Positions 8,961 to 63,516 of a stretch of DNA of 64,000 bases are shown here, one piece after another. The position numbers and the translations under genes are program-made. The stretch comes from Bacilli bacterium (GTDB taxonomy: Bacteria; Bacillota_I; Bacilli_A; RFN20; CAG-826), in the NCBI GenBank assembly GCA_050952725.1, contig JBMNLN010000001.1, positions 752,108 through 816,107 of the forward strand, given 5' to 3'. A model generated the notes under the pieces. It did not search any database, was not told the DNA's origin, and saw only the letters and a program-made list of their open reading frames with translations. The stretch's first letter is position 1; every line of letters starts with the position of its first letter.

Positions 8961-10556
8961 ATGAAAAAGAACAACTTTGGAAGAGCTGCCCTTTTAGCCT
9001 TTTCCACCTTGGGACTCGCCCTAGGAATCAGCGGGGTGCTGAAACAGACGGGAGTTGCTGTTCACGCCGCCCCGATTACGACGGGAACGATGATTTATTT
9101 TAAACCGACAGATGGTTGGTTGGAAGCCGGGGCGAAAATGTGCATCTACATGTGGAATGATGGTGGTGAAAAACTTTATGAAGAGATGTCGATTGGGACT
9201 AGCAGCACGGTCTACCACTTTGAAACCCCAACTTCCACGAAAGGCTCATTTGATAACCTCATCTTCCTTCGTAATAATCCGAGCGAACCGATTGGTTGGG
9301 ATGGAAAATGGAATCAAACGAGCGATTTAACTTACGATGGGACCAATAATTTGTATATTATCCCTTATGCCGAACAATGGCAGCAGGCCAGTCTCAATAA
9401 TACACACTGGTCCCTTTATGATGCGGCGACCTATGGTTTGATGGAAATTCCTGATGCGACCGCTTTATATCTTCGTCCCGATGCGGCTTTTATGGATGAT
9501 GGAACCACGACTGCGGACCGGATTGCCGCTTATTTCTTTAATTCCGATGGGAAAAATGCTTGGGTTGAGGCCACCGCGGAAGCCGGCGGACTTTATAAGG
9601 TCTTATCCCCGACTTTAACCGCTGGTGTCTTGCCTAACAAGGTGATCTTTGTTTCGATGAAACAAGGGACAACGGGAAGTAATTGGGACAATAAATTACA
9701 ACAAACGGCCGACCTAATTCCCGATTTAACTAAGCCGCTGTTTGATGTTGCTTCCAGCTCTTGGCAAGGAGTCCCGACGATCGTCACTCCAATCGCGACG
9801 ACCGCTGGGATTAGCAGTAGCAAATTCCGCCTTTGGCTCAACCGCAATAACCACTATCCAAGCGATGCTCATCAATACTTATTAAAAGTGGGCACGAACC
9901 GTTATAGTCCGAGTGGATATGAAAAAGCTTTAGTCTTTGATGTGGATGGAATTTATTTCCCCTATTGGGATTTAGAGATCGCTACTCTCAAAGGTCAAGC
10001 AGTAGGTTTTACCATCGTCAATACCGCTAATGAGGTGCAAGTTGAAATTCCTGCGACCACCTTTATCGAAAAAGATAATAGCAAACTTTGGATTATCCAA
10101 TACAATGAGGAGACATCGACTTGGTCGATTCAAAAAGATAAAATCGTCGGAAGAGCCTTTGCCTCATTTGTCGGCAAAGTACTCGAAGGCTATCTTAGCT
10201 GTTCTTCCAGTGTCGATAACGGCTTTGGGGCTTTTAATCTCGTGAACGAAAACTTCATTGAACGCTTAGAAGGCGGGACGTGGAATGTCGAAGGGAATCT
10301 CGGGGAGGTAATCATCAATGACTTCGCCAATCAAACTGATTATGCTACGGGAACCAAAACCGCAACCGTTGATGCCTATACCAAGCATCAAATGCTACAA
10401 GCCAATTACACCGCCGCTTTAGGCGGAGGGGGAGCGCCTTGGGTTTTAAGAGGTTCCAACTTTAATGCGATTCTGATTTCCGTGTTGATCATGGCGGTGG
10501 TCAGCCTGGGATTATTCGGCCTTCTCGCCTTGAGTAAAAAACGTTTCCAAAACTAA
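8961..10556 (+). CDS. Surface protein with tandem CBM25/26-like (starch-binding-like) modules and a C-terminal transmembrane anchor.
   Basis: There is an N-terminal signal peptide. Two repeats match the IYF..DGW...MWNDGG...NLIFLRNN..KWNQTSDL / ...VIFVSMKQG..NWDNKLQQTADL pattern of CBM25/26 modules. The C-terminus is a hydrophobic helix followed by KKRFQN. It is paralogous to the 30812-32437 product. Confidence 0.55.
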   Translation: MKKNNFGRAALLAFSTLGLALGISGVLKQTGVAVHAAPITTGTMIYFKPTDGWLEAGAKMCIYMWNDGGEKLYEEMSIGTSSTVYHFETPTSTKGSFDNLIFLRNNPSEPIGWDGKWNQTSDLTYDGTNNLYIIPYAEQWQQASLNNTHWSLYDAATYGLMEIPDATALYLRPDAAFMDDGTTTADRIAAYFFNSDGKNAWVEATAEAGGLYKVLSPTLTAGVLPNKVIFVSMKQGTTGSNWDNKLQQTADLIPDLTKPLFDVASSSWQGVPTIVTPIATTAGISSSKFRLWLNRNNHYPSDAHQYLLKVGTNRYSPSGYEKALVFDVDGIYFPYWDLEIATLKGQAVGFTIVNTANEVQVEIPATTFIEKDNSKLWIIQYNEETSTWSIQKDKIVGRAFASFVGKVLEGYLSCSSSVDNGFGAFNLVNENFIERLEGGTWNVEGNLGEVIINDFANQTDYATGTKTATVDAYTKHQMLQANYTAALGGGGAPWVLRGSNFNAILISVLIMAVVSLGLFGLLALSKKRFQN

Positions 10557-11035: not shown

Positions 11036-12538
11036 ATGAAGAAAAACGATGTAATCATCGAATTAACGCATGTCAGCAAAGTCTATGATGGCACGACGGT
11101 AGTCGATGATTTTAATTTATATGTGAAAAAAGGCGAGTTTATCACCTTTTTAGGGCCTTCGGGTTGTGGCAAGACGACCACCTTACGGATGATCGCGGGG
11201 TTTGAGTTACCGACGACTGGACAGATCTTCCTAAATGGCGAAGATATCACCAATCTCCCTCCCCATAAACGTCCGATTAACACCGTCTTCCAACGTTATG
11301 CCTTGTTTCCCCATCTCGATGTCTACGACAACATCGCTTTTGGTTTAAAACTGAAACGCCTTCCTGTCGAAGTCGCGCCTGGAAAAATTAAAAAAGTGAA
11401 ATTGACTGAAGCCGAAATCGATGACAAGGTGACGCGCGCTTTAAAACTCGTCGATTTAGAAGCGTTTGAAGACCGCGATGTCACTACCCTCTCGGGGGGG
11501 CAGCAACAACGGGTGGCCATCGCCCGGGCGTTAGTTAATGAACCGCATATCTTACTACTCGATGAACCGTTAGGGGCGCTGGATTTAAAGATGCGCAAGG
11601 AGATGCAAATCGAATTAAAGGAAATGCATCGAAAACTGGGAATTACTTTTATCTATGTCACCCATGACCAAGAAGAAGCCCTGACGATGTCGGATACCAT
11701 CGTGGTGATGCGCGATGGTAAAATCGAGCAAATCGGCACCCCGACGATGATCTATAACGAACCCCAAAATGTCTATGTCGCTGACTTTATCGGCGAGAGC
11801 AATATCTACAGTGCGACGATGATCGATAAGCAGAAAGTCCGCTTCTTAAATGCGACATGGGACTGCGTCGATGAGATGCAAAAGAATGAAAAAGTCGATG
11901 TCGTGGTTCGTCCTGAAGATATCATCATCGGTCCCAAAGGTTCGGGTTCCACCCAAGCCAAGATTACCCATAAAGTCTTCAAAGGCATCCATTATGAATA
12001 TCTCGCCCAAGTCGGAAAATACGATGTGACGATTCAAACCACGGTCGAACATCAATTAGGTGATGAGATCGGCTTGACGATTACTCCCGACAATATTCAC
12101 ATCATGAAAAAGGTCTTTACGGTCAACACCTATGATGATGCATGGATTAACAAGCATAACCAAGTGATGATCGATGATGTGGCTTTTGAATGCGATGTCA
12201 CCCAGTTAAAAGAGGGGGCTACTCTTGATGAAGAAGGATATCTCATCGATCAACAGGGGAAGAAATATGACTTAAATGATGTCGATGTGATCGCTGAAGT
12301 TGCTTTTGATCAAATCGAAGTCATCGATAACCCCGAAGAAGGAACGATTGCGGGGCATATTATCGAATCGATTTATTTAGGTGATCACTATCAGATTATC
12401 GTCCGGACGGAAAATGAAGAAGATTTCGTCATCGATACTCCCTATTTATGGAACCCCGATGACTTTGTCAGTTTAAAAATTGCCCCCGAGGCGATTAAAT
12501 TACGCGCCAAAGGAGAGCTGATCCCCGATGAAGATTAG
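11036..12538 (+). CDS. potA: Spermidine/putrescine ABC transporter ATPase PotA, with an internal insertion and a long C-terminal extension.
   Basis: Walker A (GPSGCGKTT), the ABC signature (LSGGQQQRVAIARA), Walker B (LLLDEP) and an H-loop are present. The 500 aa length, compared with about 370 aa normally, matches the enlarged PotA of Mollicutes. Confidence 0.85.
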   Translation: MKKNDVIIELTHVSKVYDGTTVVDDFNLYVKKGEFITFLGPSGCGKTTTLRMIAGFELPTTGQIFLNGEDITNLPPHKRPINTVFQRYALFPHLDVYDNIAFGLKLKRLPVEVAPGKIKKVKLTEAEIDDKVTRALKLVDLEAFEDRDVTTLSGGQQQRVAIARALVNEPHILLLDEPLGALDLKMRKEMQIELKEMHRKLGITFIYVTHDQEEALTMSDTIVVMRDGKIEQIGTPTMIYNEPQNVYVADFIGESNIYSATMIDKQKVRFLNATWDCVDEMQKNEKVDVVVRPEDIIIGPKGSGSTQAKITHKVFKGIHYEYLAQVGKYDVTIQTTVEHQLGDEIGLTITPDNIHIMKKVFTVNTYDDAWINKHNQVMIDDVAFECDVTQLKEGATLDEEGYLIDQQGKKYDLNDVDVIAEVAFDQIEVIDNPEEGTIAGHIIESIYLGDHYQIIVRTENEEDFVIDTPYLWNPDDFVSLKIAPEAIKLRAKGELIPDED

Positions 12539-13328
12539 GTTTCAACGGAAGTTTCTGGCGATTCCTTACCTGCTCTTCTTTTTGTTTTTCTTAGTTTTAC
12601 CGATTTTTCTTATCGTCTATTATGCCTTTACCGATCATAATGGGAAATTTACCTTTGATTTAGTGCGAAACTTTTTCTCCGATACGGGGAAACTCGAAGT
12701 TTTAGCCATCTCTTTGATCTTTGGGTTATTAAACACCATTTTCTGTTTATTAATCGGCTATCCAGTTTCGATGCTCTTAGCCAATAAGAAATACAATAAA
12801 AATGCGGTACTAGTTACTTTATTTATCATGCCGATGTGGATTAATTTTGTCATCCGCACTTGGGCGACGCGCGACTTACTCGCCTGGATTGGCCTATCCG
12901 GGGGGATCTATCCCGAACTAGCGACGACCATCGGTCTAGTTTATAACTATCTCCCATTTGCGATTATGCCCCTATATACGACGATGTTAAAGATGGACCA
13001 GAGCCAAATTGAAGCGGCGAGTGATCTCGGGGCAAATCCAGTCCAAGTCTTCTTTAAAGTGATAATCCCGATGACTAAACCGGGGATTTTAAGCGCGGCG
13101 ACGATGGTGTTTATGCCGACGATTTCCTCCTATGTAATCGCCGATATCTTAGGCGAAGGCAAAGTCACCTTATTTGGGAAATACATCCAAATCTACTTTG
13201 GTCAAAGCGATTGGAATAACGGTTCCTTACTAGCGTTAATCATGCTTCTATTGATTAGCATTTCCTTTATCCTTAATAAGAAAACCGCTCAAAGCGATGA
13301 AGGTGGGGTTAAAAGTTCAATATGGTAA
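12528..13328 (+). CDS. potB: Spermidine/putrescine ABC transporter permease PotB.
   Basis: It has six transmembrane helices and a permease EAA-like loop (EAASDLGANPVQVFFKVIIP). It overlaps potA by 11 nt. Confidence 0.8.
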   Translation: MKIRFQRKFLAIPYLLFFLFFLVLPIFLIVYYAFTDHNGKFTFDLVRNFFSDTGKLEVLAISLIFGLLNTIFCLLIGYPVSMLLANKKYNKNAVLVTLFIMPMWINFVIRTWATRDLLAWIGLSGGIYPELATTIGLVYNYLPFAIMPLYTTMLKMDQSQIEAASDLGANPVQVFFKVIIPMTKPGILSAATMVFMPTISSYVIADILGEGKVTLFGKYIQIYFGQSDWNNGSLLALIMLLLISISFILNKKTAQSDEGGVKSSIW

Positions 13329-14161
13329 AGCCAAAACGCGAACTGCTCAAAGTGCTGCTAGGACGAGGATTGATTCTCTTCGTCTTGCTTTTGATGTACG
13401 CCCCGATTATCGTCTTGATGGTTTTCTCCTTTACCGAATCGACCAATGTCGGAACTTGGAATGGTTTCTCGTTTCAACTCTATCTCGACTTATTTAAAAA
13501 TAAGGTGATTATGCGCGCTTTGTTCAATACGCTTCTCGTCGCTGTAGTAAGTGGTGTGGTCTCGACGATTTTGGGGACTTTAGGGGCGGTTGGAGCCTTT
13601 TATATGTCGAAAAAGGGGCGGAAGTTAGTCGAAGGTTTAACCCAAATCCCGATTATTAACGCTGAAATTGTCATGGCGATTTCCTTAGCGGTTTTATTCG
13701 TCGCCTTCAGTGCGAAGTTTAACTTCCTCACCTTACTGATCGGCCATGTGGTCTTGACTGTCGCTTTTGTCTATCTTTCGGTTAAACCAAAACTGGTACA
13801 GATGGATCCGAGTATTTATGAAGCTGCGCTCGATTTAGGGGCCACCCCGCGGGTGGCGATGCGGAAAGTGATTTTCCCCGAGGTTTTACCGGGGATTATC
13901 TCCGGCTTTATGCTGGCCTTTACCTTATCTTTAGATGACTTCATTATCACCTTTTTCCTCAGGGATAATTCTTTCGATACGATTTCGACTTATGTCCAAG
14001 GTGTCATCGCCAAAAGTGCCATCCCCCCGGCTCTGCGCGCGTTAACAACAATTATTTTTGGATTGGCCTTAATTGTCCTTTTTGTCAACAACTGGCGCAC
14101 GAAGAAAGAAGAACAATTAAAAGCCTTCCATCATGGGAAAGGAACGGTGAATGCCCAATGA
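13322..14161 (+). CDS. potC: Spermidine/putrescine ABC transporter permease PotC.
   Basis: It has a transmembrane-helix profile and the loop EAALDLGATPRVAMRKVIFP. It overlaps potB. Confidence 0.8.
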   Translation: MVKPKRELLKVLLGRGLILFVLLLMYAPIIVLMVFSFTESTNVGTWNGFSFQLYLDLFKNKVIMRALFNTLLVAVVSGVVSTILGTLGAVGAFYMSKKGRKLVEGLTQIPIINAEIVMAISLAVLFVAFSAKFNFLTLLIGHVVLTVAFVYLSVKPKLVQMDPSIYEAALDLGATPRVAMRKVIFPEVLPGIISGFMLAFTLSLDDFIITFFLRDNSFDTISTYVQGVIAKSAIPPALRALTTIIFGLALIVLFVNNWRTKKEEQLKAFHHGKGTVNAQ

Positions 14162-15645
14162 AAAAGTTTGTAACCATTGCTTTAGCGACTCTGCTTTTAG
14201 GTGGAGCCGCCCTCCCGAGTTTGCAACAGACGAAAGTCGATGCGGCCAGCGAAAAGAAAACCTTGCGCATCTATAACTGGGAAGACTATATCTATGAACC
14301 TGAAAGCGCTGATGAACAGCCATCGATTATCGATCAGTTTATCGCCTTTAAAGCCGAAGCCGGAGTAGATGTAACCGTCGTCTATGATACTTTTGCCACC
14401 AATGAAGATATGTACAATATCATGAAACTAGGCAAATCTTCATATGACTTAATCGCCCCCAGTGACTACATGATTCAAAAGATGGCGTTCGAGGGGATGT
14501 TAGAAAAATACGAATATGACGCCGCGACCCAAACCTATGCGAATATTCCCAATTACAACACCTACGCGTCGAAGTATTTAAAAGACATCTATGATGAGAT
14601 TGAAGTCTCCGAATACGCGGTTGGTTATATGTGGGGGACTTTAGGGATCGTCTATAACCCCAATCTCCCCGATGGCCGCCTCGATGCTCAGATGATGGAA
14701 GATGTCAAAAGTTGGACCGTGCTCTGGGATGAAAAATACAAAGGCAAAATCTCGATTAAAGACTCGATGCGCGATGCGTATGTGGTCGGATTACTCTATG
14801 TCCATAAGGAGACGATTGAAACTCTACAAGCTACATTAGCCGCGGGAAGTATCACCGAAGTTGCCTTTAAAGAAAGAATGGCGGAACTCTTAAACGATAC
14901 GACCCCAGAGACGGTGGAAAAAGTCTCGCAAGCCTTAAAAGAACTCAAGAAGAATATCTATGGTCTGGAAGTCGATAGCGGCAAAAACGATATCGTCACC
15001 GGCAAGATCACGATGAATACCGCCTGGAGTGGCGATGCCGTCTATGCGATGGATATCGCCGAGGAAGAAGAAGGAGTCGAACTCTATTACTCGATTCCCG
15101 ATGAAGGGGCGAATATCTGGTTTGATGGCTGGGTGATGCCCAAAGGGGCGGATAAAGAACTCGCGGCTGATTTCTTAAACTTCATCTCCAATCCCGAAAT
15201 CGCCGCTTTAAATATGGATTATATCGGCTATACCTCCTTTATCGCGGGGCAAGAAGTCCTCAGCCTCATCCATGATTGGTATGATGCCGAAGCAGGGGGA
15301 ACGATGGTCGATTTAACCTATTTCTTTGAGGGGACGGTCGATGTTGATCCTGAAGACCCTGCGACTTCGATGATCATCTATTCCGATTTAGTCAACCGCC
15401 AATTAACCGCTCAATATCCTTCCGAAGAAGAGATTCTCCGCTGTGTGATCATGGAGCATTTCGACAATGAAACCAATAACCGCATCGTCGAGATGTGGGC
15501 TGATTTTAAAGCGACGACGATTGCCGCGTGGATGATCGTTTTAATCGTCTTATTGGTCTTAGGGGGAGGCGGCTATCTCGTCTTTGAAATCCAAAGACGG
15601 AAAAAATCCAAGCGCCATGCGCGAAAAGCGGCGAAATCCTCATAA
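14158..15645 (+). CDS. potD: Polyamine-binding protein PotD with a signal peptide and an unusual C-terminal transmembrane anchor.
   Basis: There is a 4-nt ATGA overlap with potC. It has the N-terminal LRIYNWEDYI motif of the PotD/PotF family. The C-terminus is TTIAAWMIVLIVLLVLGGGGYLVFEIQRRKKSKRHARKAAKSS. Confidence 0.75.
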   Translation: MKKFVTIALATLLLGGAALPSLQQTKVDAASEKKTLRIYNWEDYIYEPESADEQPSIIDQFIAFKAEAGVDVTVVYDTFATNEDMYNIMKLGKSSYDLIAPSDYMIQKMAFEGMLEKYEYDAATQTYANIPNYNTYASKYLKDIYDEIEVSEYAVGYMWGTLGIVYNPNLPDGRLDAQMMEDVKSWTVLWDEKYKGKISIKDSMRDAYVVGLLYVHKETIETLQATLAAGSITEVAFKERMAELLNDTTPETVEKVSQALKELKKNIYGLEVDSGKNDIVTGKITMNTAWSGDAVYAMDIAEEEEGVELYYSIPDEGANIWFDGWVMPKGADKELAADFLNFISNPEIAALNMDYIGYTSFIAGQEVLSLIHDWYDAEAGGTMVDLTYFFEGTVDVDPEDPATSMIIYSDLVNRQLTAQYPSEEEILRCVIMEHFDNETNNRIVEMWADFKATTIAAWMIVLIVLLVLGGGGYLVFEIQRRKKSKRHARKAAKSS

Positions 15646-30811: not shown

Positions 30812-32437
30812 TTACGCTCTTTTTTTCTTATAGAAACCAAGATAACCAATCGTGGTTAAACTAAAGAGGACTGCGAGAATTAAGATGCCTGCGGTGTTGT
30901 CGTTGGCCTCATAGGGATAGGGCTGAAAACCCGCAGGTTGAGATGCTTCATACATCTTTTTGAGCATATCGTATTTGGCTTGGGCGTTAATCGTCACCGT
31001 TTTATTACCGGTTTCATAATCGCTGATAGTATCAAAGTCTAAGATAGTGCGATCGCTTAAATATCCCATCGTTTTCCAACTGCCATCGGGATTGCGCAAG
31101 ATAAAGTTGCTATCAATCGCCGGGAAGGCTCCATAGCCATTGTCGGTGTTGCCATCACAGCTTAAATATCCTTCTAAGGCAGCGGCTAATAAACCGCGAT
31201 AGAAGCGGGTGTAGGAGCTATCCAGCGCCCCTTTGGTCAGAGTAAAAGAACCAGCCGCCTCATTGACGCGCCAAATTTTGCTATTATCGCCAGCCGCCGT
31301 GGGAGTGCCCGCGACATAGGTGGTGCCGGCGACGGTTTGGACTTGATAACCACGGCTATCGACAATGGTAAAGGCCACGGATTGACCCGCGAGTACACTA
31401 AGAGGCAAATCGTAATAGACAAAATAGAAATCATTATAGGTGTCAGTTGCTGAAAGTTGTTCCGCCGACCAACTATAGTAGGTGCCATTAACCGTTAATA
31501 AATATTCATAACCACTGACATAATGCTGGTTGCGATCGAGCCAAACGCGCACTTTATAACGGCTAATCCCCAAAGTGGTCGGAGTTTTGAGGATGAGACT
31601 CTCATAAGGTTTCCATCCTGGTGTCCCCGTGAGCTCATATAAGGTTTTACCTACCTCGTAAGTTAAATCTGCGGTTTGATTGATTTTATAACTCCAATTG
31701 TTTTCCGCATTCGATAAACTGACGAAGATCACCCCTTTCCATTTGGTGACCCCAGCATCGCTGGTCGCAGGCACCGTCACCGCATAAACCCCTTGTTTGC
31801 TATCTTCACTCATCGTCACCCATTGCTGATCAACGGGAGTGCCATCGCGGAAGAAGTAAGCAGCCATATGATTAAAATTCGCGCCTTTAAAGGTCGCATC
31901 CGGATAGACATAAAGTTTGGTGCCCACGGGAATCCGCGGGTCGACAAAGACCGTTTTGGTATAGGTGGGGTTATTCCCCGCACTGGTAATCTGATAAAAA
32001 TCATTCGTGCCATCATAGGTGAAGGTGGCGGTATAATTCCACACATTATTTAGATTATTAGGATCTAAGCGGAAGAATTGAAACATGCTATAGGAAGCAC
32101 CTGCAGGAGTCGCCGCCATATAGGTATGATCCACATCGGCCACGGGTGTCATATGCACGCGTGTTTCCCCAGTGCCGCGGACAAAATCAACGGCAAAAAC
32201 CGCGCCATCTTTGGCCCAATCCGTTCCCGCATGTAAGTAAATGATTTTCCCCGTGGGAAGTACAGCAGCCTCAGCTTGCTGGGGTGTGTTGTTTGTTGGC
32301 AAAGTCAAGCCTGCACTCCAAAGACAGGCCAAGCCGGTGATCATGATGAGAAGTTTGGTTTTAATCTTGTTGGTTTTCATCGATCGCCCTCCTTTATAAT
32401 TCTCGAGAAATATAATCATTATTTTACAGTTTGTCAA
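30812..32437 (-). CDS. Surface protein with tandem CBM25/26-like modules and a C-terminal transmembrane anchor. It is a paralogue of the 8961-10556 product.
   Basis: It has a signal peptide. Shared motifs with the paralogue include ...KINQTADLTYE..., RVWLDRNQHY, LEGYLSCDGNTDNGYGAF, ETGNKTVTINAQAKYDMLK, and a C-terminal helix followed by KKKRA. Confidence 0.55.
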   Translation of the reverse strand: MTNCKIMIIFLENYKGGRSMKTNKIKTKLLIMITGLACLWSAGLTLPTNNTPQQAEAAVLPTGKIIYLHAGTDWAKDGAVFAVDFVRGTGETRVHMTPVADVDHTYMAATPAGASYSMFQFFRLDPNNLNNVWNYTATFTYDGTNDFYQITSAGNNPTYTKTVFVDPRIPVGTKLYVYPDATFKGANFNHMAAYFFRDGTPVDQQWVTMSEDSKQGVYAVTVPATSDAGVTKWKGVIFVSLSNAENNWSYKINQTADLTYEVGKTLYELTGTPGWKPYESLILKTPTTLGISRYKVRVWLDRNQHYVSGYEYLLTVNGTYYSWSAEQLSATDTYNDFYFVYYDLPLSVLAGQSVAFTIVDSRGYQVQTVAGTTYVAGTPTAAGDNSKIWRVNEAAGSFTLTKGALDSSYTRFYRGLLAAALEGYLSCDGNTDNGYGAFPAIDSNFILRNPDGSWKTMGYLSDRTILDFDTISDYETGNKTVTINAQAKYDMLKKMYEASQPAGFQPYPYEANDNTAGILILAVLFSLTTIGYLGFYKKKRA

Positions 32438-34848: not shown

Positions 34849-36774
34849 ATGGCCACGACCTTAAAGCAGAATAAGAAGAGAAGAAGCTTAGCTGGCTATG
34901 TCTTTATTCTTCCTTTGGTCGTGTATTTTCTCATCTTTCAACTGGCGCCAATCGTCATCTCCTTTTTCATTTCCTTTACCGATTGGAATGGGCGCTCACC
35001 GAAATTCAACTTTGTCGGGTTTAAAAATTATCTTGCGATTTTAACCAATCGCGTGTTATATCCGGAATTTTGGACCTCGCTCGGGATTACTTTTCAATAT
35101 ACGTTGCTCACCGTTCCGCTCGGGGTAGTTTTCGCGACGATAATCGCGGCGATTTTAAATAATAAAATCAAGGGGGAACGCTTCTTTAAAACCGCCTTTT
35201 ATATTCCCGCGGTTACCGCTGGGGCTGCGGTTTCAGCGATTTGGTTATTTATGCTCGATCCCGCTTATGGGGTAATCGGGTGGATTAATCAGACCTTCGG
35301 GACCCAGATTAATTTACTCGGGCGGACATCATCCGCGCTGCCGACTTTGGCTTTGATGTCCGTCTGGGGTGGGCTGGGCTATAATGTGTTAATTATTTTA
35401 AGTGCGATGAAGAACATCAATCCCCAGCTGTATGAAGCTTGTGAAGTCGATGGCGGGGGCTTTTTTAAGAAGTTCTTCCATGTAACGGTTCCAGGGATTA
35501 TGCCGACCTTATATTTTATTATCATCACCAGCGTGATTGGCTCGCTCCAAGCTTTTGATCAGATGTATTTAATGACCGGTGGCGGGCCCGAAGGAGCGAC
35601 GCGCACCTTTATGCTCACCGTCTATAAGACGATGTTCACCTATGAAGAAGCCGGAGTAGCAACGGCGATGAGTTATTTCCTCTTTCTGATCATCATCGTA
35701 ATCACCTTTATTCAATTCCGCCTCGTTCCCCAAGGGCATCAAGTTGAAGAAGAAGGTCAAAAACGAAAATTGCTGTGGCGAAAAAAACAACCAGTTATTT
35801 ATCAAGAAGAGATGTCATTTAACGAAAAACCTCTACAAATTAAGCCTGAAATTGTGGAAATCAGCCCTGAGGAAATCGCCGCCTTAACCCGTAAAAGACA
35901 TCGAGCGCAGCAGCGCCAAGTCCACCTTGGTCGCATCGGTCGCGTGCTTCAATATGCGATTTTATGTTTTTTGGCTTTGGCGTTTATCTTCCCTTATCTC
36001 TGGCTGATTTCCAATTCTTTCCGGATTCCGGAAGCGATTTTTAATTCGGGGAGATTCTCGCTTTTGCCCCGCGATATGAATGGGGATATCCGCTTTGTTT
36101 TTGATAATTATGTCAATGCTTTCCACTATCTTGATCTAAAACGCGTCTTTTTCAATACGATGGTTGTCTGTCTAGTCAATACGGGGCTCAATCTCTTTTT
36201 AAATGCCCTTTCTGGTTATGCCTTTGCCCGATTAAAATTTAAAGGTCGCGAACTGACTTTTAAAATTATGATTCTAGCGATTATGATTCCGGGGACGGTG
36301 ATGACGATCCCTAATTTAATTATCTGTCGATTGCTGGGGATTGATGATACCTTGCTAGTTTTAATCTTACCCTTTACCATGAGTATCTATAATGTCTTTC
36401 TCATGCGCCAGCAATTTTACAATCTTCCTAAAGACTTAGAAGAAGCCGCGATTATCGATGGTGCCGGCCCCTTGACGATTTTCTTTAAAGTGAGTTTACC
36501 ATTAGTCACCCCGATGTTGGTTGTCCTAGGGATTACCACCTTTATGTGGAATTACAACAACTTCCTTTGGACTTTAGTCTCGTTGCAGTCACCAGAAAAC
36601 TTTACCTTAGCGCGCTCACTGGGTGATTTAGTTAGTGCTGGTGGCTCCAATCCATCGTTTTATCCGATTATGCTGGCGGGTTCGGTGATCGTCTCGCTTC
36701 CCTTAGTCATCATTTTCTTCGTTTTACAAAAATATATCATCGGCGGCCTCAGTGCTGGGGCGGTCAAAGAATAA
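34849..36774 (+). CDS. Fused carbohydrate ABC permease: a MalF/UgpA-like domain and a MalG/UgpE-like domain in one 641 aa polypeptide joined by a charged linker.
   Basis: The first half has six transmembrane helices and an EAA-like loop (EACEVDGGGFFKKFFHVTVP). The linker (residues 297-360) is Lys/Arg/Glu-rich. The second half has six transmembrane helices and EEAAIIDGAGPLTIFFKVSLP. Confidence 0.7.
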   Translation: MATTLKQNKKRRSLAGYVFILPLVVYFLIFQLAPIVISFFISFTDWNGRSPKFNFVGFKNYLAILTNRVLYPEFWTSLGITFQYTLLTVPLGVVFATIIAAILNNKIKGERFFKTAFYIPAVTAGAAVSAIWLFMLDPAYGVIGWINQTFGTQINLLGRTSSALPTLALMSVWGGLGYNVLIILSAMKNINPQLYEACEVDGGGFFKKFFHVTVPGIMPTLYFIIITSVIGSLQAFDQMYLMTGGGPEGATRTFMLTVYKTMFTYEEAGVATAMSYFLFLIIIVITFIQFRLVPQGHQVEEEGQKRKLLWRKKQPVIYQEEMSFNEKPLQIKPEIVEISPEEIAALTRKRHRAQQRQVHLGRIGRVLQYAILCFLALAFIFPYLWLISNSFRIPEAIFNSGRFSLLPRDMNGDIRFVFDNYVNAFHYLDLKRVFFNTMVVCLVNTGLNLFLNALSGYAFARLKFKGRELTFKIMILAIMIPGTVMTIPNLIICRLLGIDDTLLVLILPFTMSIYNVFLMRQQFYNLPKDLEEAAIIDGAGPLTIFFKVSLPLVTPMLVVLGITTFMWNYNNFLWTLVSLQSPENFTLARSLGDLVSAGGSNPSFYPIMLAGSVIVSLPLVIIFFVLQKYIIGGLSAGAVKE

Positions 36775-40832: not shown

Positions 40833-42536
40833 ATGAGAAAAGATAAACCTAGATCAAACCGCTTATTTATCGCCTTATTAAGCACGATGCTCCTTGGTAG
40901 TTTCGCTAGCTTAAAAGGGATCAATGCGGTACCGGTTAAAGCCGCGACCACGGAACCTGCCATCCTAGGTGAAGGGCTTAACTGGGATATTAATGACCCG
41001 GCTAACAAAATGACCCCGGTCGTTGGTTTGGACGATGTTTTTGAAAAGTCATTCACGGGCTTAACCAGCAACCATTATACGATCGTGGCTTTTGGCAGCG
41101 CTTGGGTGCGCTACCCGAATACGGGTTATGATCGCGCTAATTCCAATGCGGGCAATTTAATCTATCCGATTCCGGATGGGGATAAAAACATCCTCTTACA
41201 GCAAACGGGGGATGTGACTTTCCGGATTTATAATCCCGATAATGAACCAGGTTCGCCCGCGGGCCCTTATCGCTATACGGTCAATTACACGACCCTGCCT
41301 AATCCCGCTCCGAATACGAAGACGAATATCGTTTTAGGCGGGAGTGCCGTCGGTGGGTGGCGAACGGACATTGAAGCCAATCGTTTGGAATGGATGAATG
41401 CCCGTTATGCGTTAAAAGGGATGGCTTTTACCGCGGGAGAATTTAAACCCTATGTTTGGAAAACTTGGGATGGCGGCTGGAATTGTTTTTCGATTGACAC
41501 GCTCAATTCCACCGCGGCTGATGTCCTCTCTAATGGCTCGGCTCCTGACTATAACATCATCGTCAACACGGCGGGCAATTATGGGATTTTATATGACCTC
41601 AAAACCCAAATGTTTACTTTCCACGCCCAGACTACGACGACTAAAACCGTATCGAAATACTATGGAACGACCAAGTTAGAAGAAGAATTCGCTTTTAGCG
41701 GCATCGCTTATAACCCGACTGAATGTGAAGTCGCGGGGAAAAAATTAGTCGGCTGGTACACGGATGCGGATTTTGAAAACTTATATATCCCTGGTGAAGT
41801 CAACGAAAATATAAATCTCTATGGGAAATTCGTTGAAGAGATTAAACTCGCCTTCTACGATAAAGCGCAGACGATTTCAACAGGTGATGTTTATGCCTAC
41901 GGCTGGAATAATGATGCAACCGTCACCCTTGGGGCTTGGCCCGGAACGAAAATGACTAAGCACGGTTATGGTTACCATACTTTGGATGTAGCCGCCGCCA
42001 ACATTTGTGATAATTTAGTCTTCAACAATGGTCTTGGTGGCGATGATGAGGTCAAAACTGGTGACTTGACCTGGAATTTACCTTTTAATATTTATCACAA
42101 CATCAATAATGCTTGGGGCACCAATAGCGATGATTATCACGCAGCGACCTTATTTGGAATTCGCATCCTGCATGAAACCCGGCTTTGCGATGCAACCGGG
42201 GCGACGAACAAGGTCGTGCTCAATGATTGGAACACCCTTGCTGGTGAATTCAATGCTCTATCGGTCAATGTCAAAGCGCTGATTAAAAATCACGTCGGTA
42301 GTGTCACTGGCGACCTTCTCGATCAAGCGGTGGTCCGTTATGATTACATCGTGGCCAAATATGGGGGAGCGGGTTATAACGACTTTATCAATCGCGCCGG
42401 CTCACCTTCGCCCTTAGCTCCTAGAGACTTTATGAAACATGAAAATCTCTTGATCATCTATGCGGTGCTGACGATCGCGATCATCACCGGAGCGGCAATT
42501 GCTCTTTTGAAACGCCAAAAGAAAGCACAAAAATAA
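40833..42536 (+). CDS. CBM26-like starch-binding-module surface protein with a C-terminal transmembrane anchor.
   Basis: A GGAGG RBS precedes the ATG at 40833, and there is a signal peptide. DVYAYGWNND..GAWPGTKMTK..YHTLDV...NLVFNNGLGGDDEVKTGDL is the classical CBM25/26 signature. The C-terminus is LLIIYAVLTIAIITGAAIALLKRQKKAQK. Confidence 0.6.
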   Translation: MRKDKPRSNRLFIALLSTMLLGSFASLKGINAVPVKAATTEPAILGEGLNWDINDPANKMTPVVGLDDVFEKSFTGLTSNHYTIVAFGSAWVRYPNTGYDRANSNAGNLIYPIPDGDKNILLQQTGDVTFRIYNPDNEPGSPAGPYRYTVNYTTLPNPAPNTKTNIVLGGSAVGGWRTDIEANRLEWMNARYALKGMAFTAGEFKPYVWKTWDGGWNCFSIDTLNSTAADVLSNGSAPDYNIIVNTAGNYGILYDLKTQMFTFHAQTTTTKTVSKYYGTTKLEEEFAFSGIAYNPTECEVAGKKLVGWYTDADFENLYIPGEVNENINLYGKFVEEIKLAFYDKAQTISTGDVYAYGWNNDATVTLGAWPGTKMTKHGYGYHTLDVAAANICDNLVFNNGLGGDDEVKTGDLTWNLPFNIYHNINNAWGTNSDDYHAATLFGIRILHETRLCDATGATNKVVLNDWNTLAGEFNALSVNVKALIKNHVGSVTGDLLDQAVVRYDYIVAKYGGAGYNDFINRAGSPSPLAPRDFMKHENLLIIYAVLTIAIITGAAIALLKRQKKAQK

Positions 42537-42726: not shown

Positions 42727-44847
42727 TTAGGTTAATTCCCACTGCAGTCGGGGCTTAGTTCCAGTAAAATCCCAAATTTCCAAATTGTAATCGAGTTCGC
42801 TCAGGAGTTCATCACTAGTATATCCGGTAATACCATCGCCTTTTCCAGTTGCGCTATTACCGATGCGGTCCATGGTGGACTGAGTTTTATCATAGGCACA
42901 ATGATAATAAATCGTCGCATGGCTTCCCCCGGGAGTAACACCGACAAAAGCTCCGACAAAAACATCTTCCCCAGTCTTATCAATCACGGTGGATAAGGCC
43001 AGACAGCAAATGAGCAGATTGTTATATCCTTCCATGCGCCCGACAAAGCCGCCAAGGTGGACTAAGGTGGTCGCGGTCGCTTGCACGCTGCCTTCGGCAT
43101 AGCAATCGCTGATTCCCCCATATCCCATATAACCGACAAAGCCGCCGCTATAATTCGCCCCGGTTACCTCCATATTGGCTTTAGCTTGCATAATCTGCAT
43201 ATAATTATCCAGCATTTGCCCGATAAAACCACCCGTGGGCGTCTGTTCACTGCCAGTCGCGGTCAGAGTGCCATTGGCACTCGAGCGACTGATCATCACT
43301 CCTTGTTCTGATTGACGCAGCAAGCCGATAAAGCCCCCGCTAATCGCATAGGCGGCAGTGATCTCGCCCTGATAATGGACATTTTCATAAATGGAGTTAT
43401 CACTAACTCCTGCAATGCCCCCAGCTTTAGCGATGCCATTACGAGCATGGAGGTTGATATCGATGATCACTTCCACATTTCTAATCGTGGCATGGGAAAT
43501 AACCGCGGATAGCCCCCCGATATGGGCTTCAAAGGTTTGATTGGAAGCGCTATTGACGAGGCCGACCAACTTCAAGTTGGAGATGGAGGCCCCATTTAAG
43601 CAACTGAAGAAGCCCACATTTTGGTTTTGATCACTGACATCAATCCCACTAATCGTATGCCCCGCGCCATCGAAACGGCCTCCAAAGGCTTTGGGTGTCC
43701 AAGGCTCGGTTAAGGTGATATCGGCATTTAACCGATAGGAACCTAAAAAAGTCATCGCCCGCAATTCGGTTTCGGAGTTGATTAAGGTGACATTGAAATA
43801 ATATTTCTCGCTCAGAGCAGAGGGATAATTGGCGCTTGAAATCGCCTGAACTTGGACATAAACACAACCTTCAATTGTCGCCTGCGGCATCGTGTAGCGA
43901 TTCGTGGTGATGCCGGCGACTAAATTTCCATCGATATAGATTTGATAACCATCCGCGTAGGGCACAGCCGCAAAGGTTAAGATATTTCCCGTCAAAGTGA
44001 GATTAGTTGGAGTGGTAAGGGTGATTTTTGGCACGTTGATTTCGACTTGGGCTATTTCGCTATTGAGGTAAGTAGCACTATCGCCACGGGCTTGAATTTC
44101 CACAGTGAGCATCCCGGTTTGATAATAGCCGATCTCACAGCGATTGGTGGGGCTCATCCCCCATAAAGACCCATCGATGACAACTTTATATTCCCTCGCC
44201 TGCGCGACAGCATCCCAAAGAAGAAACCCGTCGTCAAATGCGATATTACGCGGAGTGTCCAGCTGTTGTTTAATCGTGATTTCTTCGCTATAAGCACTCG
44301 ATTTTAAATAGGGGTCACTGGCCGTAGCTAAAACTTTAAGGCTGACGACCTCGCTAGTTAAATCGTATGCAGGATGATTGACATATTGTTCTGAGGCGTG
44401 ATTGATTTTTACGATATAGCCAGTCGCTAAGGGAACTTCATCCCAGAAGATCTGGTTGCCAACTTGGCGCAGATTTTGCGGGACTTCTAAAGTTAAGTAA
44501 GCGGTAAAGGTTTGGACTTCCGAATAAGGCGAACAAGAAGTCAAATGGCATGCTTTGACTTGGACGGTGATTATCCCATAGGTGGTCGCGGGTAATGCGA
44601 AATAATGTTCATAAGTAGTATGTTCGTCCGCATTGAGCAAAACGATATAGGAACTCGCTCCGTCCACCGCCTCCCAACTAAGGGTGCGCTCGGTCAAGGT
44701 AATCTGCTTGGGCGCGGTTAACTCACTGCTGGTGTCTTGACTGGTCGTCAGGCTGGATTCTTCGCGACTCGATTGGGGTTGACATCCAAAGAGGAGAAGA
44801 GCCACACTGGCGAAACTGAAGAAGAGATTGCGAAACTTTTTCATCAT
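42727..44847 (-). CDS. Lipoprotein with four FN3-like repeats and multiple GLUG motifs.
   Basis: The lipobox is LLLFGCQ. Repeated units of about 70 aa match (...W..V..A..Y.V...). The C-terminal half has repeated GG(F/I)(V/I)G...G motifs (GGFVGYMGYG, GGFIGQM, GGIAGVSDN, GGFVGRMEGY), which is the GLUG motif. Confidence 0.55.
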   Translation of the reverse strand: MMKKFRNLFFSFASVALLLFGCQPQSSREESSLTTSQDTSSELTAPKQITLTERTLSWEAVDGASSYIVLLNADEHTTYEHYFALPATTYGIITVQVKACHLTSCSPYSEVQTFTAYLTLEVPQNLRQVGNQIFWDEVPLATGYIVKINHASEQYVNHPAYDLTSEVVSLKVLATASDPYLKSSAYSEEITIKQQLDTPRNIAFDDGFLLWDAVAQAREYKVVIDGSLWGMSPTNRCEIGYYQTGMLTVEIQARGDSATYLNSEIAQVEINVPKITLTTPTNLTLTGNILTFAAVPYADGYQIYIDGNLVAGITTNRYTMPQATIEGCVYVQVQAISSANYPSALSEKYYFNVTLINSETELRAMTFLGSYRLNADITLTEPWTPKAFGGRFDGAGHTISGIDVSDQNQNVGFFSCLNGASISNLKLVGLVNSASNQTFEAHIGGLSAVISHATIRNVEVIIDINLHARNGIAKAGGIAGVSDNSIYENVHYQGEITAAYAISGGFIGLLRQSEQGVMISRSSANGTLTATGSEQTPTGGFIGQMLDNYMQIMQAKANMEVTGANYSGGFVGYMGYGGISDCYAEGSVQATATTLVHLGGFVGRMEGYNNLLICCLALSTVIDKTGEDVFVGAFVGVTPGGSHATIYYHCAYDKTQSTMDRIGNSATGKGDGITGYTSDELLSELDYNLEIWDFTGTKPRLQWELT

Positions 44848-49882: not shown

Positions 49883-49887
49883 CCTCC

Positions 49888-51345
49888 TTAGTAGGCGAGA
49901 TTACGCGCATGATTAACGGTGGTTAAATCGGGTAAATCCTCGTAATAGGTCTGAATCTCGCTGACAAAGATGGTGTCCCAACTATCCGTGGCGTTATCGA
50001 CGATTTCCAAATAGGCGACTTGATCGATGTAATCGCTCAGGTCGAGGAAATATTCGACCAGGTTAGTGCCATCATGCCGCTGATTGGCAAGGCGGTAGAT
50101 TTCGCGATTCGAACCATATAACCGCACGGAAACATAGGTATCTTTATCGAAACGGACTCCTTTACCCGCTGCGAGTTTAAGCGAAGCATAACCGACACCA
50201 TCGATAGTAAATAAAGATGAACGGATCAGCCCGCGCCCTGCATCGCCCTGAGCGTTGCTTTTAAGAATCATCGCTTCGACATGAAAAGTCGAAGAATTTG
50301 ACCACCCTAAATTATCTGACGTCTTCCACAGGGCCATCCCTTGGCGAAAGTCACCATTCGGGAGTTGATTCGGCGCGTAATCTTGGGCAAAGGTCGGAAG
50401 TTGATTAAGCGCTAGATAAGATGCCGTTTCATCTGGCACAACTTCATGATAAGTCTCAAGGGCATCAAAGGTGAGATAATCATCTTCACGCCCGCCGTAG
50501 TCGTTAATGACCGCATAGAGTTCTTCGCCTAAATAAGCGCTTAAATCCGCGCGATAAGAAGTGGTCGCACCATCGCGACTGGGCGAAAAGGGGTCATGAT
50601 ATTGAGAGGCGCTATAACGGGCAATTTCGTGATGATCACGGGCCCGATAAATCGCCAGATAAGCTAAATCGGCGACCCGTCCTGCCCCCATTTTAAAAGT
50701 AAGATAGCCACTTCCTCCTAAAGTAAAGAGCGAAGAAGTTAATCTTCCGATTTTTTCTTCATAAAGCGCTTTATTTTCGTTTAGAGGCGGTCCGAGTAGA
50801 TATTCTCCATGGTCGGTTAAAGGTTCCGGTGAAGTTTTTCCCCGCGCGATAACCGCATCATTAGTAAAAGCTAATAAGTTCCGTTCTCCTTTGAAAACGG
50901 TGTGCGCGGTCCAACCAAATAAGTCACCAGTTTCAAAGGAGTGATTGATAATTCGATATCGATTATGGCGATCGAGAACTTCGAAGTTCAAAGTGCTTTG
51001 ACCGTTTGGAGCATGGACTTTTAGCGCATAAACGCCTGGGGCAAGATTGACTAAATAGTGTTTTTTAATATAGAGATGGTCGTCGATGATTTCGTAATCA
51101 CGAGCGATGATATTGTGACCACTCAAGAAGGAAATATCGTATTTCGTATTATCAAAGACATATTCCAAATCGTTTAATTGATCAAAATCAAATGCATCGA
51201 CAATTTTGGTGAGAACAAAATCATCAACTTCCGCTTCGGGGCTATTTCCATTTGCACTCGGCGAAGAAGATGGCGTTTCTGAAAAGGACTGCCCACATCC
51301 AGTAAGGAGTAATAAATTCAACAATAGCGTTACTTTCAATCTCAT
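49888..51345 (-). CDS. Lipoprotein with tandem CBM4_9-like domains and no catalytic domain.
   Basis: The lipobox is LLLTGCGQ. The motifs INHSFETGDLFGWTAH ... GRLTSSLFTLGGSGYLTFKMGAG and PNGDFRQGMALW ... GLIRSSLFTIDGVGYASLKLAAG are paralogous to the N-terminus of the adjacent GH125 protein. Confidence 0.55.
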   Translation of the reverse strand: MRLKVTLLLNLLLLTGCGQSFSETPSSSPSANGNSPEAEVDDFVLTKIVDAFDFDQLNDLEYVFDNTKYDISFLSGHNIIARDYEIIDDHLYIKKHYLVNLAPGVYALKVHAPNGQSTLNFEVLDRHNRYRIINHSFETGDLFGWTAHTVFKGERNLLAFTNDAVIARGKTSPEPLTDHGEYLLGPPLNENKALYEEKIGRLTSSLFTLGGSGYLTFKMGAGRVADLAYLAIYRARDHHEIARYSASQYHDPFSPSRDGATTSYRADLSAYLGEELYAVINDYGGREDDYLTFDALETYHEVVPDETASYLALNQLPTFAQDYAPNQLPNGDFRQGMALWKTSDNLGWSNSSTFHVEAMILKSNAQGDAGRGLIRSSLFTIDGVGYASLKLAAGKGVRFDKDTYVSVRLYGSNREIYRLANQRHDGTNLVEYFLDLSDYIDQVAYLEIVDNATDSWDTIFVSEIQTYYEDLPDLTTVNHARNLAY

Positions 51346-52268: not shown

Positions 52269-52272
52269 ATTG

Positions 52273-53169: not shown

Positions 53170-53171
53170 GT

Positions 53172-61839: not shown

Positions 61840-63516
61840 ATGAAGAAACGCTTATCGATTTCCCTCATTGTTGGCGCTTTTGCTTTACTCACTAGTGTAT
61901 TCTTACCGAAACCTGAGGCGGGGCAAGTAAGAGCTGATCACACACCTTATCAAGTGTTAAATGGGGGCTTTGAAACTGGCGATTTTACTGGTTGGAAGAC
62001 ATATCGACTTTGGAAAAATGAAGATGGAATGGCGGCTTTTGATCCTTCGCTGGTCCATGGATATGCGACCTATTTCGGATCGCATCCCTATGACCGTGAT
62101 GGAAACTATCAACTCGGTGTTTCTTCAGGTCAAAATGCTAGTGATGGTCCAATCAAATGGGATGGCGGAATGTCAGAAGAGCGCATGGGGTATCTCCGTT
62201 CGAGCGATTTTATCCTCGGGGGCAGTGGCTGGATTAGCTTTAAGCTCGGAGGTGGTAAACACCCATCCTTTGCTTATTTATCCGTGCGCAAATCCACTGA
62301 CCATACTGAGGTGGCGCGGTTTGCGAATCGCCACTACAATGATAAGACGGTAGCTACTGCACAATATGGTTCCGATATTACGAACGCAGAAGCCTTTCTA
62401 TTCCAATATTATTTCGATTTGAGTGAACACTTGACGGAAAAACTTTACTTTTTACTTTGTGATACCTCCTCTTGGGAGTGGTCTGTTCTTTCCGCTGATA
62501 GTTTTGTCACTTACTACGCTGATGCCCCAACTCCCAGTGCGGATCAAACTGCGGTTAATATCTTGCCCGAAGTAAAAAATATCGCAACCGCTGATAACTC
62601 AATCAAAAATGGTTTTTTCGCTTATGGTCTTGACGACTGGAGCACTTCCGCCACGCAAGGCGATAAGGATATGGGGTGGAATATCGACGGTGACTCCGCC
62701 CGTAGTAATAAAAACGGCAAAGGTGATGGCGGAGTTGGTATTCTCCGCTCAAGTGCCTTTATTTTAACTGACAATAAATACGTAAAATTTGATTGGGCAG
62801 GCGGACTCAAATATGACAAACAAATCTTTGTATCCGTCAAAGAAGTGGGAACCAATATCGAAAAATTGCGGTTTGTCCGCAGGGAAAATTTATCTGGTAA
62901 AGAAAGTGAAAATTTCGATAATCATCTGCTCGATTTGACCGGGCTAGATGACACGAAAAAATATTACTTAGAATTTGCTGATAACCGCGCTTCTGGCTGG
63001 GGTGTGTCCTACGTTAAAGGAGTCCAATTGGTAAACTATTACACACCCGATGGAGACCGTGCCGTTGCCATTAGTCATTTACCGACGAATTTTAATATCG
63101 ATCCTCTTCAAGAAGCGACTAACTATGGGGCATACTTCCTAGCGCAAACGGCGGATATGTGTCTAGCCGGAACGGGAAATCTCGTCAATTGGGGAACGCT
63201 TGAGACCGAATATGGCTTATTATCAAATGCCGCAAAAGATATCTTCGTCGATAATGCGACTACTGATGCTAATGTCGTGGCCGCCCGGGAAAGAGCGGTC
63301 TATCTCTTCAATAAATATGGCGCAACCGAAGGATGGACTTTCTTCATCGTCGATTCGACGAATGTCCCATATCCTAAACCATCGGGATTTAAACCAAATG
63401 ATAGCGCGCTTGCCTCGGAAGTATCGCTGAGCAATCTCATCACCTTAGCGACGATTGTTTTAGGAAGTGCGGTTTTATACTTAGCGATGCGGCGCAAACG
63501 TCTAGTTATTAAATAG
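61840..63516 (+). CDS. Surface protein with tandem CBM4_9-like domains and a C-terminal transmembrane anchor.
   Basis: The start is set at ATG 61840, with an AAAGGAGAG RBS and a signal peptide. The motifs LNGGFETGDFTGW ... GYLRSSDFILGGSGWISFKLGGG and IKNGFFAYGLDDW ... GILRSSAFILTD..YVKFDWAGG are present. The C-terminus is LITLATIVLGSAVLYLAMRRKRLVIK. Confidence 0.55.
   Translation: MKKRLSISLIVGAFALLTSVFLPKPEAGQVRADHTPYQVLNGGFETGDFTGWKTYRLWKNEDGMAAFDPSLVHGYATYFGSHPYDRDGNYQLGVSSGQNASDGPIKWDGGMSEERMGYLRSSDFILGGSGWISFKLGGGKHPSFAYLSVRKSTDHTEVARFANRHYNDKTVATAQYGSDITNAEAFLFQYYFDLSEHLTEKLYFLLCDTSSWEWSVLSADSFVTYYADAPTPSADQTAVNILPEVKNIATADNSIKNGFFAYGLDDWSTSATQGDKDMGWNIDGDSARSNKNGKGDGGVGILRSSAFILTDNKYVKFDWAGGLKYDKQIFVSVKEVGTNIEKLRFVRRENLSGKESENFDNHLLDLTGLDDTKKYYLEFADNRASGWGVSYVKGVQLVNYYTPDGDRAVAISHLPTNFNIDPLQEATNYGAYFLAQTADMCLAGTGNLVNWGTLETEYGLLSNAAKDIFVDNATTDANVVAARERAVYLFNKYGATEGWTFFIVDSTNVPYPKPSGFKPNDSALASEVSLSNLITLATIVLGSAVLYLAMRRKRLVIK

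Follow-up and report, generated by a model that had tools for sequence, protein, structure and literature searches.

Five proteins encoded in a 64 kb stretch of DNA from a Bacilli bacterium (contig JBMNLN010000001.1; "the window" denotes this whole stretch) were found to have the same layout: an N-terminal signal peptide, a long ectodomain, and a single C-terminal transmembrane helix followed by a short Lys/Arg-rich tail. We call them A, B, C, D, and PotD (Table 1). It is probable that all five are type I ("C-anchored") membrane proteins that depend on the general Sec machinery and on nothing more. This anchoring mode is known and is textbook material; what is new is its apparent frequency in this lineage and the presence in C and D of a juxtamembrane unit, the D-type cassette, with the A-type module of A and B as a narrower second case. 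The five proteins have three separate origins, in that A and B are paralogs, the helix of PotD is that of a PotD subfamily, and C and D share the cassette. The window contains about 41 substantial open reading frames (ORFs), and about 82 kb of the genome was covered when about 18 kb of flanking sequence was included.

Layout of the Five Proteins

A Kyte-Doolittle scan gave exactly two hydrophobic segments for each of the five proteins, one per terminus. On the Hessa biological scale, the sums for the C-terminal 19-mers were -3.2 (A), -1.9 (PotD), -0.7 (B), -2.6 (C), and +1.0 kcal/mol (D), and the best mid-protein 19-mers of all five were at +7.6 kcal/mol or higher. The uncharged C-terminal runs are 22 to 28 residues long and are followed by tails of 5 to 19 residues containing 3 to 9 Lys or Arg and at most one acidic residue, whereas the 15 residues upstream of each helix contain 0 to 2 Lys or Arg. 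The LocateP program defines its C-anchored class by the same four criteria as were applied here (PMC2375117): all five proteins have the C-terminal helix, the positive tail, and no LPXTG, and their N- and C-terminal helices are about 430 to 510 residues apart, relative to a LocateP minimum of more than 45. The same termini are present in independent assemblies and in dozens of homologs of 35 to 80% identity, and the two-segment layout is kept in all full-length A and B homologs, in 42 D-family members of 500 to 600 residues, and in 61 of 73 PotD relatives.

Each N terminus consists of a basic n-region, a short h-region, and a small-x-small site of the A-x-A type, and cleavage was predicted by the heuristic -3/-1 rule after residue 36 of A, 29 of PotD, 38 of B, 37 of C, and 32 of D. 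The c-regions were unusually long, with 10 to 13 polar residues from the h-region to A-x-A, in these proteins and in their homologs likewise. The canonical cleavage site followed by a residue other than Pro in all five proteins, the conservation of the same spacing and A-x-A pattern in homologs, and the short and weakly hydrophobic h-regions (Hessa +0.3 to +2.8), which are typical of signal peptides and not of anchors, speak against a hairpin, in which an uncleaved N-terminal segment would hold the protein at both ends with the ectodomain as an external loop. Such a hairpin is improbable, even though c-regions of this length could lower cleavage and double anchoring does occur in the PotD family, in which 43 of the 73 relatives combine a lipobox with a C-terminal helix.

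In the type I reading, the signal peptide would target the chain to SecYEG, signal peptidase I would probably cut at the A-x-A site, and the ectodomain would be threaded outward through the translocon. The C-terminal run of about 22 uncharged residues would then act as a stop-transfer sequence and exit sideways into the bilayer, with the Lys/Arg tail kept in the cytoplasm in keeping with the positive-inside rule. The outcome would be an enzyme or binding protein on the cell surface, tethered by one helix. In a cell without sortase and with little or no wall, a helix tether would be, beside lipoproteins, the available way to hold polymer-degrading and nutrient-binding proteins.

An earlier note on this DNA had described the recurrent layout in these five proteins, and both the layout and the C-terminal helices were upheld on the two hydrophobicity scales. 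A general Gly-rich stretch, which it had included in the layout, was not found: GGGG is located in the linker of A and inside the helix of PotD, and is absent from B and D. The tails are indeed short and Lys/Arg-rich, as the note had said, except that its range of 4 to 15 residues does not include the 19-residue tail of PotD. The ORF that it had placed at 30812-32437 is real, and we identify it as B with a start most likely at the ATG at 32380 and not at the TTG at 32437.

The D-Type Cassette of Proteins C and D

The ectodomains of C and D are unrelated, and the two proteins have a juxtamembrane module in common (BLAST E 0.003). The lectin-like domains of D are common to proteins of Clostridia and Izemoplasmatales, and D is 100% identical to the protein ACOX3K_03810 (Bacilli bacterium) of a metagenome-assembled genome (MAG) in NCBI. 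In a comparison with a hidden Markov model (HMM) of the D family, C had an E value of 3e-7, which fell to 8e-17 with a broader profile; for an 810-residue Endonuclease I protein from a relative, the two values were 1e-5 and 1e-10. A homology search with an alignment of C and D only found nothing.

The D-type module is about 85 residues long, and its AlphaFold model is a compact four-helix domain (pLDDT 96.2). The signature obtained from 148 sequences is A-x6-FL-x2-T-x3-C-x9-W-x2-L-x3-Y-x7-K-x2-F-x12-A-x2-RY-x5-KY-x8-F, in which the Cys never varies and the Trp has a conservation of 99%. No match to the module was found in Pfam, NCBIfam, or PDB sequences, or by Foldseek against the PDB (best E 3, TM-score at most 0.42).

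When the D-type profile was compared with 1.84 billion cluster representatives, 757 matched at E≤1e-3 and 87 at E≤1e-10. Of the best 150 of the 757, 144 were newly retrieved, and architectures were counted in these: in 138, a linker, a C-terminal helix, and a tail come after the module, five are truncated by the end of a contig, and one is ambiguous. The linker is 9 to 28 residues long (median 21), Asn/Ser-rich, and of low complexity, and the tails have a median length of 7 residues, 57% of them Lys or Arg. LPXTG was found in none of the 144, a lipobox-like signal in 2, and a plain signal peptide in 99. The proteins that carry the module are between about 270 and about 1,900 residues long, and the Pfam ectodomains recognized in 56 of the representatives included Endonuclease_1 (23), Peptidase_S8 (14), Big_2 (31), Big_3 (19), and lamin-tail (13) domains. 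The cassette, defined as the module, a linker of 9 to 28 residues, the helix, and the Lys/Arg tail, is present in C and D and not in A, B, or PotD, and it is a mobile unit fused to many unrelated ectodomains. The Endonuclease I proteins of these lineages, which are usually treated as secreted, are probably cell-tethered because they often carry this cassette.

By default we read the D-type module as a stalk or spacer, and it may also have a role in dimerization, ligand binding, or partner recognition. For other proteins of these organisms, a floppy linker suffices in place of a folded module. A 661-residue type I protein of Tenericutes bacterium ADurb.Bin087 (locus L009) was seen to have a third Cys-containing helical stretch before its anchor (YMHLDKNVDGQCDTYYPLAKAEWNSLSNEIRALY...ARLVAWATAKG), which did not match the A-type HMM, the D-type HMM, or Pfam.

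Proteins A and B

Proteins A and B are paralogous (33% identity, E 4e-71), and their family is restricted to the Tenericutes/Izemoplasmatales/Acholeplasmatales/Bacilli-type lineage. No Pfam or NCBIfam match was found for A, the N-terminal repeats of which represent an unannotated domain common to surface proteins of Bacteroidota and Firmicutes. Two assignments were tried and dropped: PF22058 (X25) for these repeats, given that the X25 match in the protein P0046 is at 273-346, outside of the A-homologous region; and T9SS sorting domains ("choice of anchor") on Bacteroidota relatives of A, for which there was only one sub-threshold TIGR04183 match, and which were not used.

The A-type module is about 95 residues long, is located before the linker, and has the motif KVLEGYLSC...NGYGAF...DAYxKY with an invariant Cys. 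Its AlphaFold model is a mixed alpha/beta structure (pLDDT 88.6), and no PDB match was obtained by structure or by sequence. A single cassette common to A, B, C, and D was considered on the basis of a visual similarity (Cys at the end of a helix, an aromatic residue, and KY in the last helix) and was rejected as unproven, with hhalign probabilities of 0.4% and 0.6% for the A-type module against the D-type profiles and differing AlphaFold2 folds.

In two relatives, the A-family gene is located 2 kb from a pullulanase gene (PUD, CBM48, and alpha-amylase domains). These pullulanases (loci L005 and L011) have a signal peptide, a Ser/Thr/Pro/Asp-rich linker, a transmembrane helix, and a Lys/Arg tail, without a folded module. 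On the basis of this gene neighborhood, we infer that A and B may have a role related to alpha-glucan.

PotD

The potD gene is the last gene of potA-potB-potC-potD (11036-15645), after genes for an ABC ATPase with TOBE_2 and two permeases. The protein matched SBP_bac_8 at E 2e-23 and NF043073 in part, and it scored far under the cut-off of the PotD/PotF equivalog models (107 vs. 582 bits); therefore, it belongs to a PotD-like subfamily and is not an equivalog.

Among the 73 metagenomic relatives with a complete 3' end, the 61 with a C-terminal helix and Lys/Arg tail include the 43 that also have a lipobox, and the other 12 are plain lipoproteins. The relatives with both a lipobox and a C-terminal helix would be anchored at both ends; in the window PotD, the lipobox is lost and the helix alone is left. 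The contigs that encode these relatives range from 28 to 58% GC, and the wide spread of helix-bearing relatives indicates that the helix is a trait of a broad PotD subfamily and not an invention of this lineage. The earlier statement that PotD is anchored by a C-terminal helix in addition to lipoproteins elsewhere holds insofar as the helix is present and the window encodes nine lipoproteins, with the qualification that this helix was inherited.

Absence of Known Sorting Motifs

LPXTG is absent from all five proteins, and no motif is common to the five tails. In a comparison of the tails with NCBIfam at E values of up to 10, no sorting-signal model, including those for PEP-CTERM, GlyGly-CTERM, and PGF-CTERM, reached its cut-off. 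The best score was that of TIGR01167 on B, 14.4 bits relative to a cut-off of 15.9, and this match covers only model positions 8-33, which correspond to the helix and tail. A D-family homolog from a MAG designated Bacilli bacterium (P0088) reached 17.4 bits in the same model on its helix and tail alone, without an LPXTG, and for this reason alone it bears the NCBI name "LPXTG cell wall anchor domain-containing protein". When 119 cassette proteins were aligned on the start of the helix, each of the 25 positions before it had at most 0.57 bit, and no motif was seen. A candidate processing enzyme of the sortase, exosortase, or rhomboid type was found neither in the window nor in the 18 kb of flanking sequence. 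The sequence LPPTS in the L005 pullulanase was considered as an LPXTG and rejected: it is separated from the helix by 14 partly charged residues, lies in the Ser/Thr/Pro linker, and is absent from the L011 ortholog.

These results bear on the alternative that the C-terminal helix and the basic tail act as a sorting signal and are removed, with a sortase-, exosortase-, archaeosortase-, or rhombosortase-like enzyme attaching the protein to a lipid or glycan and the Cys module serving as the recognition element. In its favor, known sorting signals have the same tripartite build (a conserved part, a hydrophobic stretch, and a basic cluster), the D-type module, with its invariant Cys, shows a strict coupling to the helix (138 of 144 representatives), and TIGR01167 came near its cut-off on B and exceeded it on P0088. 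Against this, the TIGR01167 matches start at model position 6 or 8 and end at 33, so that only the helix and tail are recognized, and sortases have been reported lost in related orders (PMC10868615). Moreover, sortase-like cleavage is unlikely because there is no motif abutting the helix, as there is in known signals, because the conserved module ends 9 to 28 residues upstream behind a variable, low-complexity linker, because such a module is absent from PotD and the pullulanases, and because no candidate enzyme is encoded in the window or its 18 kb of flanking sequence. We regard a cleaved signal as very improbable.

The earlier note was correct in stating that no sortase or exosortase motif precedes the helix. 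There was no sign of the dedicated tail-anchoring pathway that it had suggested, given that a conserved motif is lacking in the 25 residues that precede the helix. Nor do the five proteins form one class, as their juxtamembrane regions are of three different kinds (A/B, C/D, and PotD). The label "tail-anchored" is wrong because all five have signal peptides and external domains, and hence are of type I.

Frequency of C-Anchored Proteins

The LocateP C-anchored class has been reported to make up 0.1 to 0.4% of the proteomes of Actinobacteria, Bacillales, Clostridia, Lactobacillales, and Mollicutes, and 0.3% in classical Mollicutes (PMC2375117). In the window, 5 of the 41 ORFs encode C-anchored proteins, which is about 30-fold the reported values (binomial P ~7e-7 for p=0.004), a local frequency that is inflated because the window is a glycan-utilization region (two GH30, two GH130, GH125, and sugar-binding proteins) and hence is rich in exported proteins. 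The 16 non-polytopic exported proteins of the window consist of 9 lipoproteins, the 5 C-anchored proteins, and 2 with a signal peptide only; the roughly 18 kb of flanking sequence contained no further C-anchored protein. The same heuristic applied to 200 kb of E. coli K-12 as a control gave 0 of 175 ORFs. In 11 loci of related genomes, 7 more type I proteins were found in about 141 ORFs (P ~2e-6, excluding the A family, which had been used for fetching the loci); the type I proteins in loci of relatives include two pullulanases, an Endonuclease I protein, a second PotD, and small paralogs.

The window comes from a metagenome-type assembly and the ORF list was purely mechanical, and so it might be thought that the recurrence is due to chance or to an annotation artifact, with hydrophobic C termini arising from frame errors or composition. 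This explanation has a negligible probability: it is refuted by the conservation of the same termini in independent assemblies and in homologs, and it is at odds with the binomial P value relative to published frequencies and with the E. coli control.

Host Lineage and Envelope

The host is represented by a small-genome MAG of the Bacilli, with Izemoplasmatales and Acholeplasmatales among its relatives; the contigs on which these genes lie measure 0.6 to 1.3 Mb. The homologs of A and D carry the names Tenericutes bacterium ADurb.Bin239, Tenericutes bacterium ADurb.Bin087, Candidatus Izemoplasmatales, Acholeplasmatales, and Bacilli bacterium, and some are named inconsistently, as Erysipelotrichaceae or Staphylococcaceae MAGs. 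TGA is the stop codon of 13 of 40 ORFs, which indicates the standard genetic code, as in Acholeplasma and Izemoplasma and unlike Mycoplasma. No wall, sortase, or wall-binding domain genes were seen in the approximately 82 kb. A comparative study has predicted that sortases were lost at the ancestor of Acholeplasmatales, Izemoplasmatales, and ML615J-28 and that peptidoglycan was wholly or partly lost in these orders (PMC10868615). A Mollicutes-like envelope is therefore plausible for this genome, judging from its relatives, and the suggestion of such an organism in the earlier note agrees with the names of the homologs and with these reported losses.

Comparison with Known Systems

The closest counterparts are the C-anchored proteins of LocateP, such as VmpA/Amp and the ScARP adhesins, which have a cleavable signal peptide, as is predicted for the five proteins here, and likewise one C-terminal helix, a positive tail, no LPXTG, and an external ectodomain; phytoplasma VmpA and the adhesins of Spiroplasma citri are documented cases of such display (PMC4392738). 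The proteins described here differ from LocateP C-anchored proteins in that four of the five have a conserved folded juxtamembrane module and in their frequency of 5 in 41 ORFs, and from the Mollicutes adhesins in their cargo, which consists of hydrolases and binding proteins of a free-living saccharolytic organism.

Pullulanases and binding proteins are sortase substrates in walled Firmicutes. LPXTG substrates (TIGR01167) have the same signal peptide, ectodomain, hydrophobic stretch, and Lys/Arg tail, whereas here there is no LPXTG and the helix is presumably permanent and not a transient retention signal. Exported proteins with exosortase, archaeosortase, or rhombosortase signals (PEP-CTERM, PGF-CTERM, and GlyGly-CTERM) also end in a helix with a basic cluster, and archaeosortase systems operate in cells without peptidoglycan as well. 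Such signals differ from the termini seen here in that a short motif directly adjoins the helix and a processing enzyme co-occurs with them; no such motif or enzyme was found in the window and flanks.

In archaeal oligopeptide-binding proteins, which have a signal peptide and a C-terminal helix (PMC3387779), and in the Mycoplasma PotC-PotD fusion (NF043073, MMSYN1_0195), a binding protein is held by a transmembrane element and not by a lipid, as in the window PotD. In contrast to these, PotD has a single helix directly after the binding-protein fold, without a Ser/Thr-rich glycosylated stalk or a permease fusion, and its helix is common to a broad bacterial subfamily, many members of which keep the lipobox. 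Tail-anchored proteins (GET/TRC40-type clients and bacterial analogs) also have a single helix at the extreme C terminus, but they lack a signal peptide, have a cytosolic bulk, and are inserted post-translationally, whereas the five proteins here have signal peptides and domains of extracytoplasmic types (SBP_bac_8 and CBM26).

Points against the Type I Reading

Several points weigh against the interpretation of the five proteins as plain type I proteins. Their cleavage sites and helices were derived from simple scales, and the helix of D is marginal in the Hessa sum (+1.0, relative to +9.0 for the best internal segment of D). The sequence covered amounts to only about 82 kb of the genome, and a sortase, rhomboid, or exosortase-like enzyme may be encoded elsewhere. 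The loss of peptidoglycan in this MAG was deduced from the names of relatives and from the literature. Lastly, plain stop-transfer anchoring gives no reason for the retention of a folded module, with a Cys that is 100% invariant, beside the helix in hundreds of families.

A further possibility, which we consider unlikely, is that the Cys modules of the D type, and perhaps those of the A type and of L009, would be not passive stalks but the working part of a lineage-specific surface-display system that replaces sortase anchoring in wall-less or thin-walled Bacilli. The module and helix might be seen by a dedicated partner, or the invariant Cys might link displayed proteins mutually or to a membrane glycolipid. 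If true, such a system would organize a tethered "exo-digestome" of nucleases, proteases, and glycan-binding proteins on a naked membrane.

Other Features of the Window

The coordinates of the five proteins and of related features are given in Table 1. Between 18400 and 27000, the window has a low-GC island (30 to 36%, vs. about 43 to 45% elsewhere) with genes for an AAA_14/DUF4143 ATPase, an Mrr_cat restriction endonuclease, a 763-residue DndB-like protein, a D12 N6-adenine methyltransferase, and a DUF7226 protein, and it looks like a horizontally acquired restriction or defense island. The product of 34849-36774 is a 641-residue ABC permease for which 11 to 12 transmembrane segments are predicted; it has two BPD_transp_1 stretches, as if the two permease subunits of a sugar ABC importer had been fused.

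A long same-strand array at 42727-60392 (-) encodes lipoprotein glycoside hydrolases (GH125, and F5/8-type-C with GH130) with Ser-rich linkers after the lipobox Cys, several large lipoproteins without a Pfam match, a binding-protein lipoprotein, two permeases, a DUF1861 protein, and a cytoplasmic GH130, and it looks like a mannan or mannoside utilization locus. Lastly, 10 kb downstream of the window end, after D, there are genes for GtrA-like, amine-oxidase-like, and PMT_2 (GT39/GT83-type) glycosyltransferase proteins (L098, 17844-21634), the products of which could act in membrane glycolipid synthesis or protein glycosylation.

Table 1. Positions of the C-anchored proteins, their parts, and related features (window coordinates unless a locus is named).
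Feature	Coordinates	Strand	Remarks
A (531 aa)	8961..10556	+	signal peptide, two N-terminal repeats, A-type module, C-terminal transmembrane helix, tail KKRFQN
A signal peptide, residues 1-36	8961..9068	+	long c-region; predicted cleavage after V-H-A (heuristic -3/-1 rule)
A A-type juxtamembrane module, residues 395-489	10143..10427	+	HMM E 4e-44
A 28-residue uncharged run (498-525) with transmembrane helix, and 6-residue Lys/Arg tail	10452..10553	+	dG -3.18
PotD-like polyamine-binding protein (495 aa)	14158..15645	+	type I signal peptide, no lipobox, SBP_bac_8, C-terminal transmembrane helix, 19-residue tail
PotD signal peptide	14158-14244		long c-region
PotD transmembrane helix (residues 452-476) and tail	15511..15642	+	tail EIQRRKKSKRHARKAAKSS (9 Lys/Arg)
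B (522 aa)	30812..32380	-	from ATG at 32380
B signal peptide	32267-32380	-	long c-region
B A-type module	30932-31213	-	
B transmembrane helix	30830-30898	-	
B tail	30815-30829	-	KKKRA
C (567 aa)	40833..42536	+	signal peptide, Flg_new-like (Listeria-Bacteroides repeat) and CBM26, D-type module, transmembrane helix, tail KRQKKAQK
C signal peptide	40833-40943	+	long c-region
C CBM26 domain	41883-42038	+	
C D-type juxtamembrane module, residues 430-522	42120..42398	+	
C transmembrane helix (residues 538-559) and 8-residue Lys/Arg tail	42444..42533	+	dG -2.55
D (558 aa)	61840..63516	+	signal peptide, two lectin-like beta domains, D-type module, transmembrane helix, tail RRKRLVIK
D signal peptide	61840-61935	+	long c-region
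D D-type module, residues 419-508	63094..63363	+	four helices, invariant Cys441
D transmembrane helix (residues 528-550) and 8-residue Lys/Arg tail	63421..63513	+	dG +1.0
Type I protein with third Cys-containing stretch (661 aa)	L009 14945-16930		
Pullulanases near A-family genes	L005 13508-16828; L011 13591-16995		
Metagenomic relatives of the window PotD	loci L030-L088		

Significance

Free-living wall-less Bacilli, such as Izemoplasmatales, have been discussed as degraders of extracellular DNA and polymers. The loss of sortase has been read as meaning fewer surface proteins (PMC10868615). Contrary to that view, a single C-terminal helix, often with a reusable cassette, appears to hold many hydrolases and binding proteins on the surface of such lineages, and in the stretches sampled C-anchoring is far more common than in other Gram-positive bacteria or classical Mollicutes. 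Helix-plus-tail termini are a trap for annotation, in that they can receive the name "LPXTG cell wall anchor", and the D-type cassette provides a simple sequence marker for surface proteins of these uncultured lineages. Nucleases and proteases predicted to be "extracellular" may in fact be cell-tethered, such that their activities would be privatized and would not be public goods.

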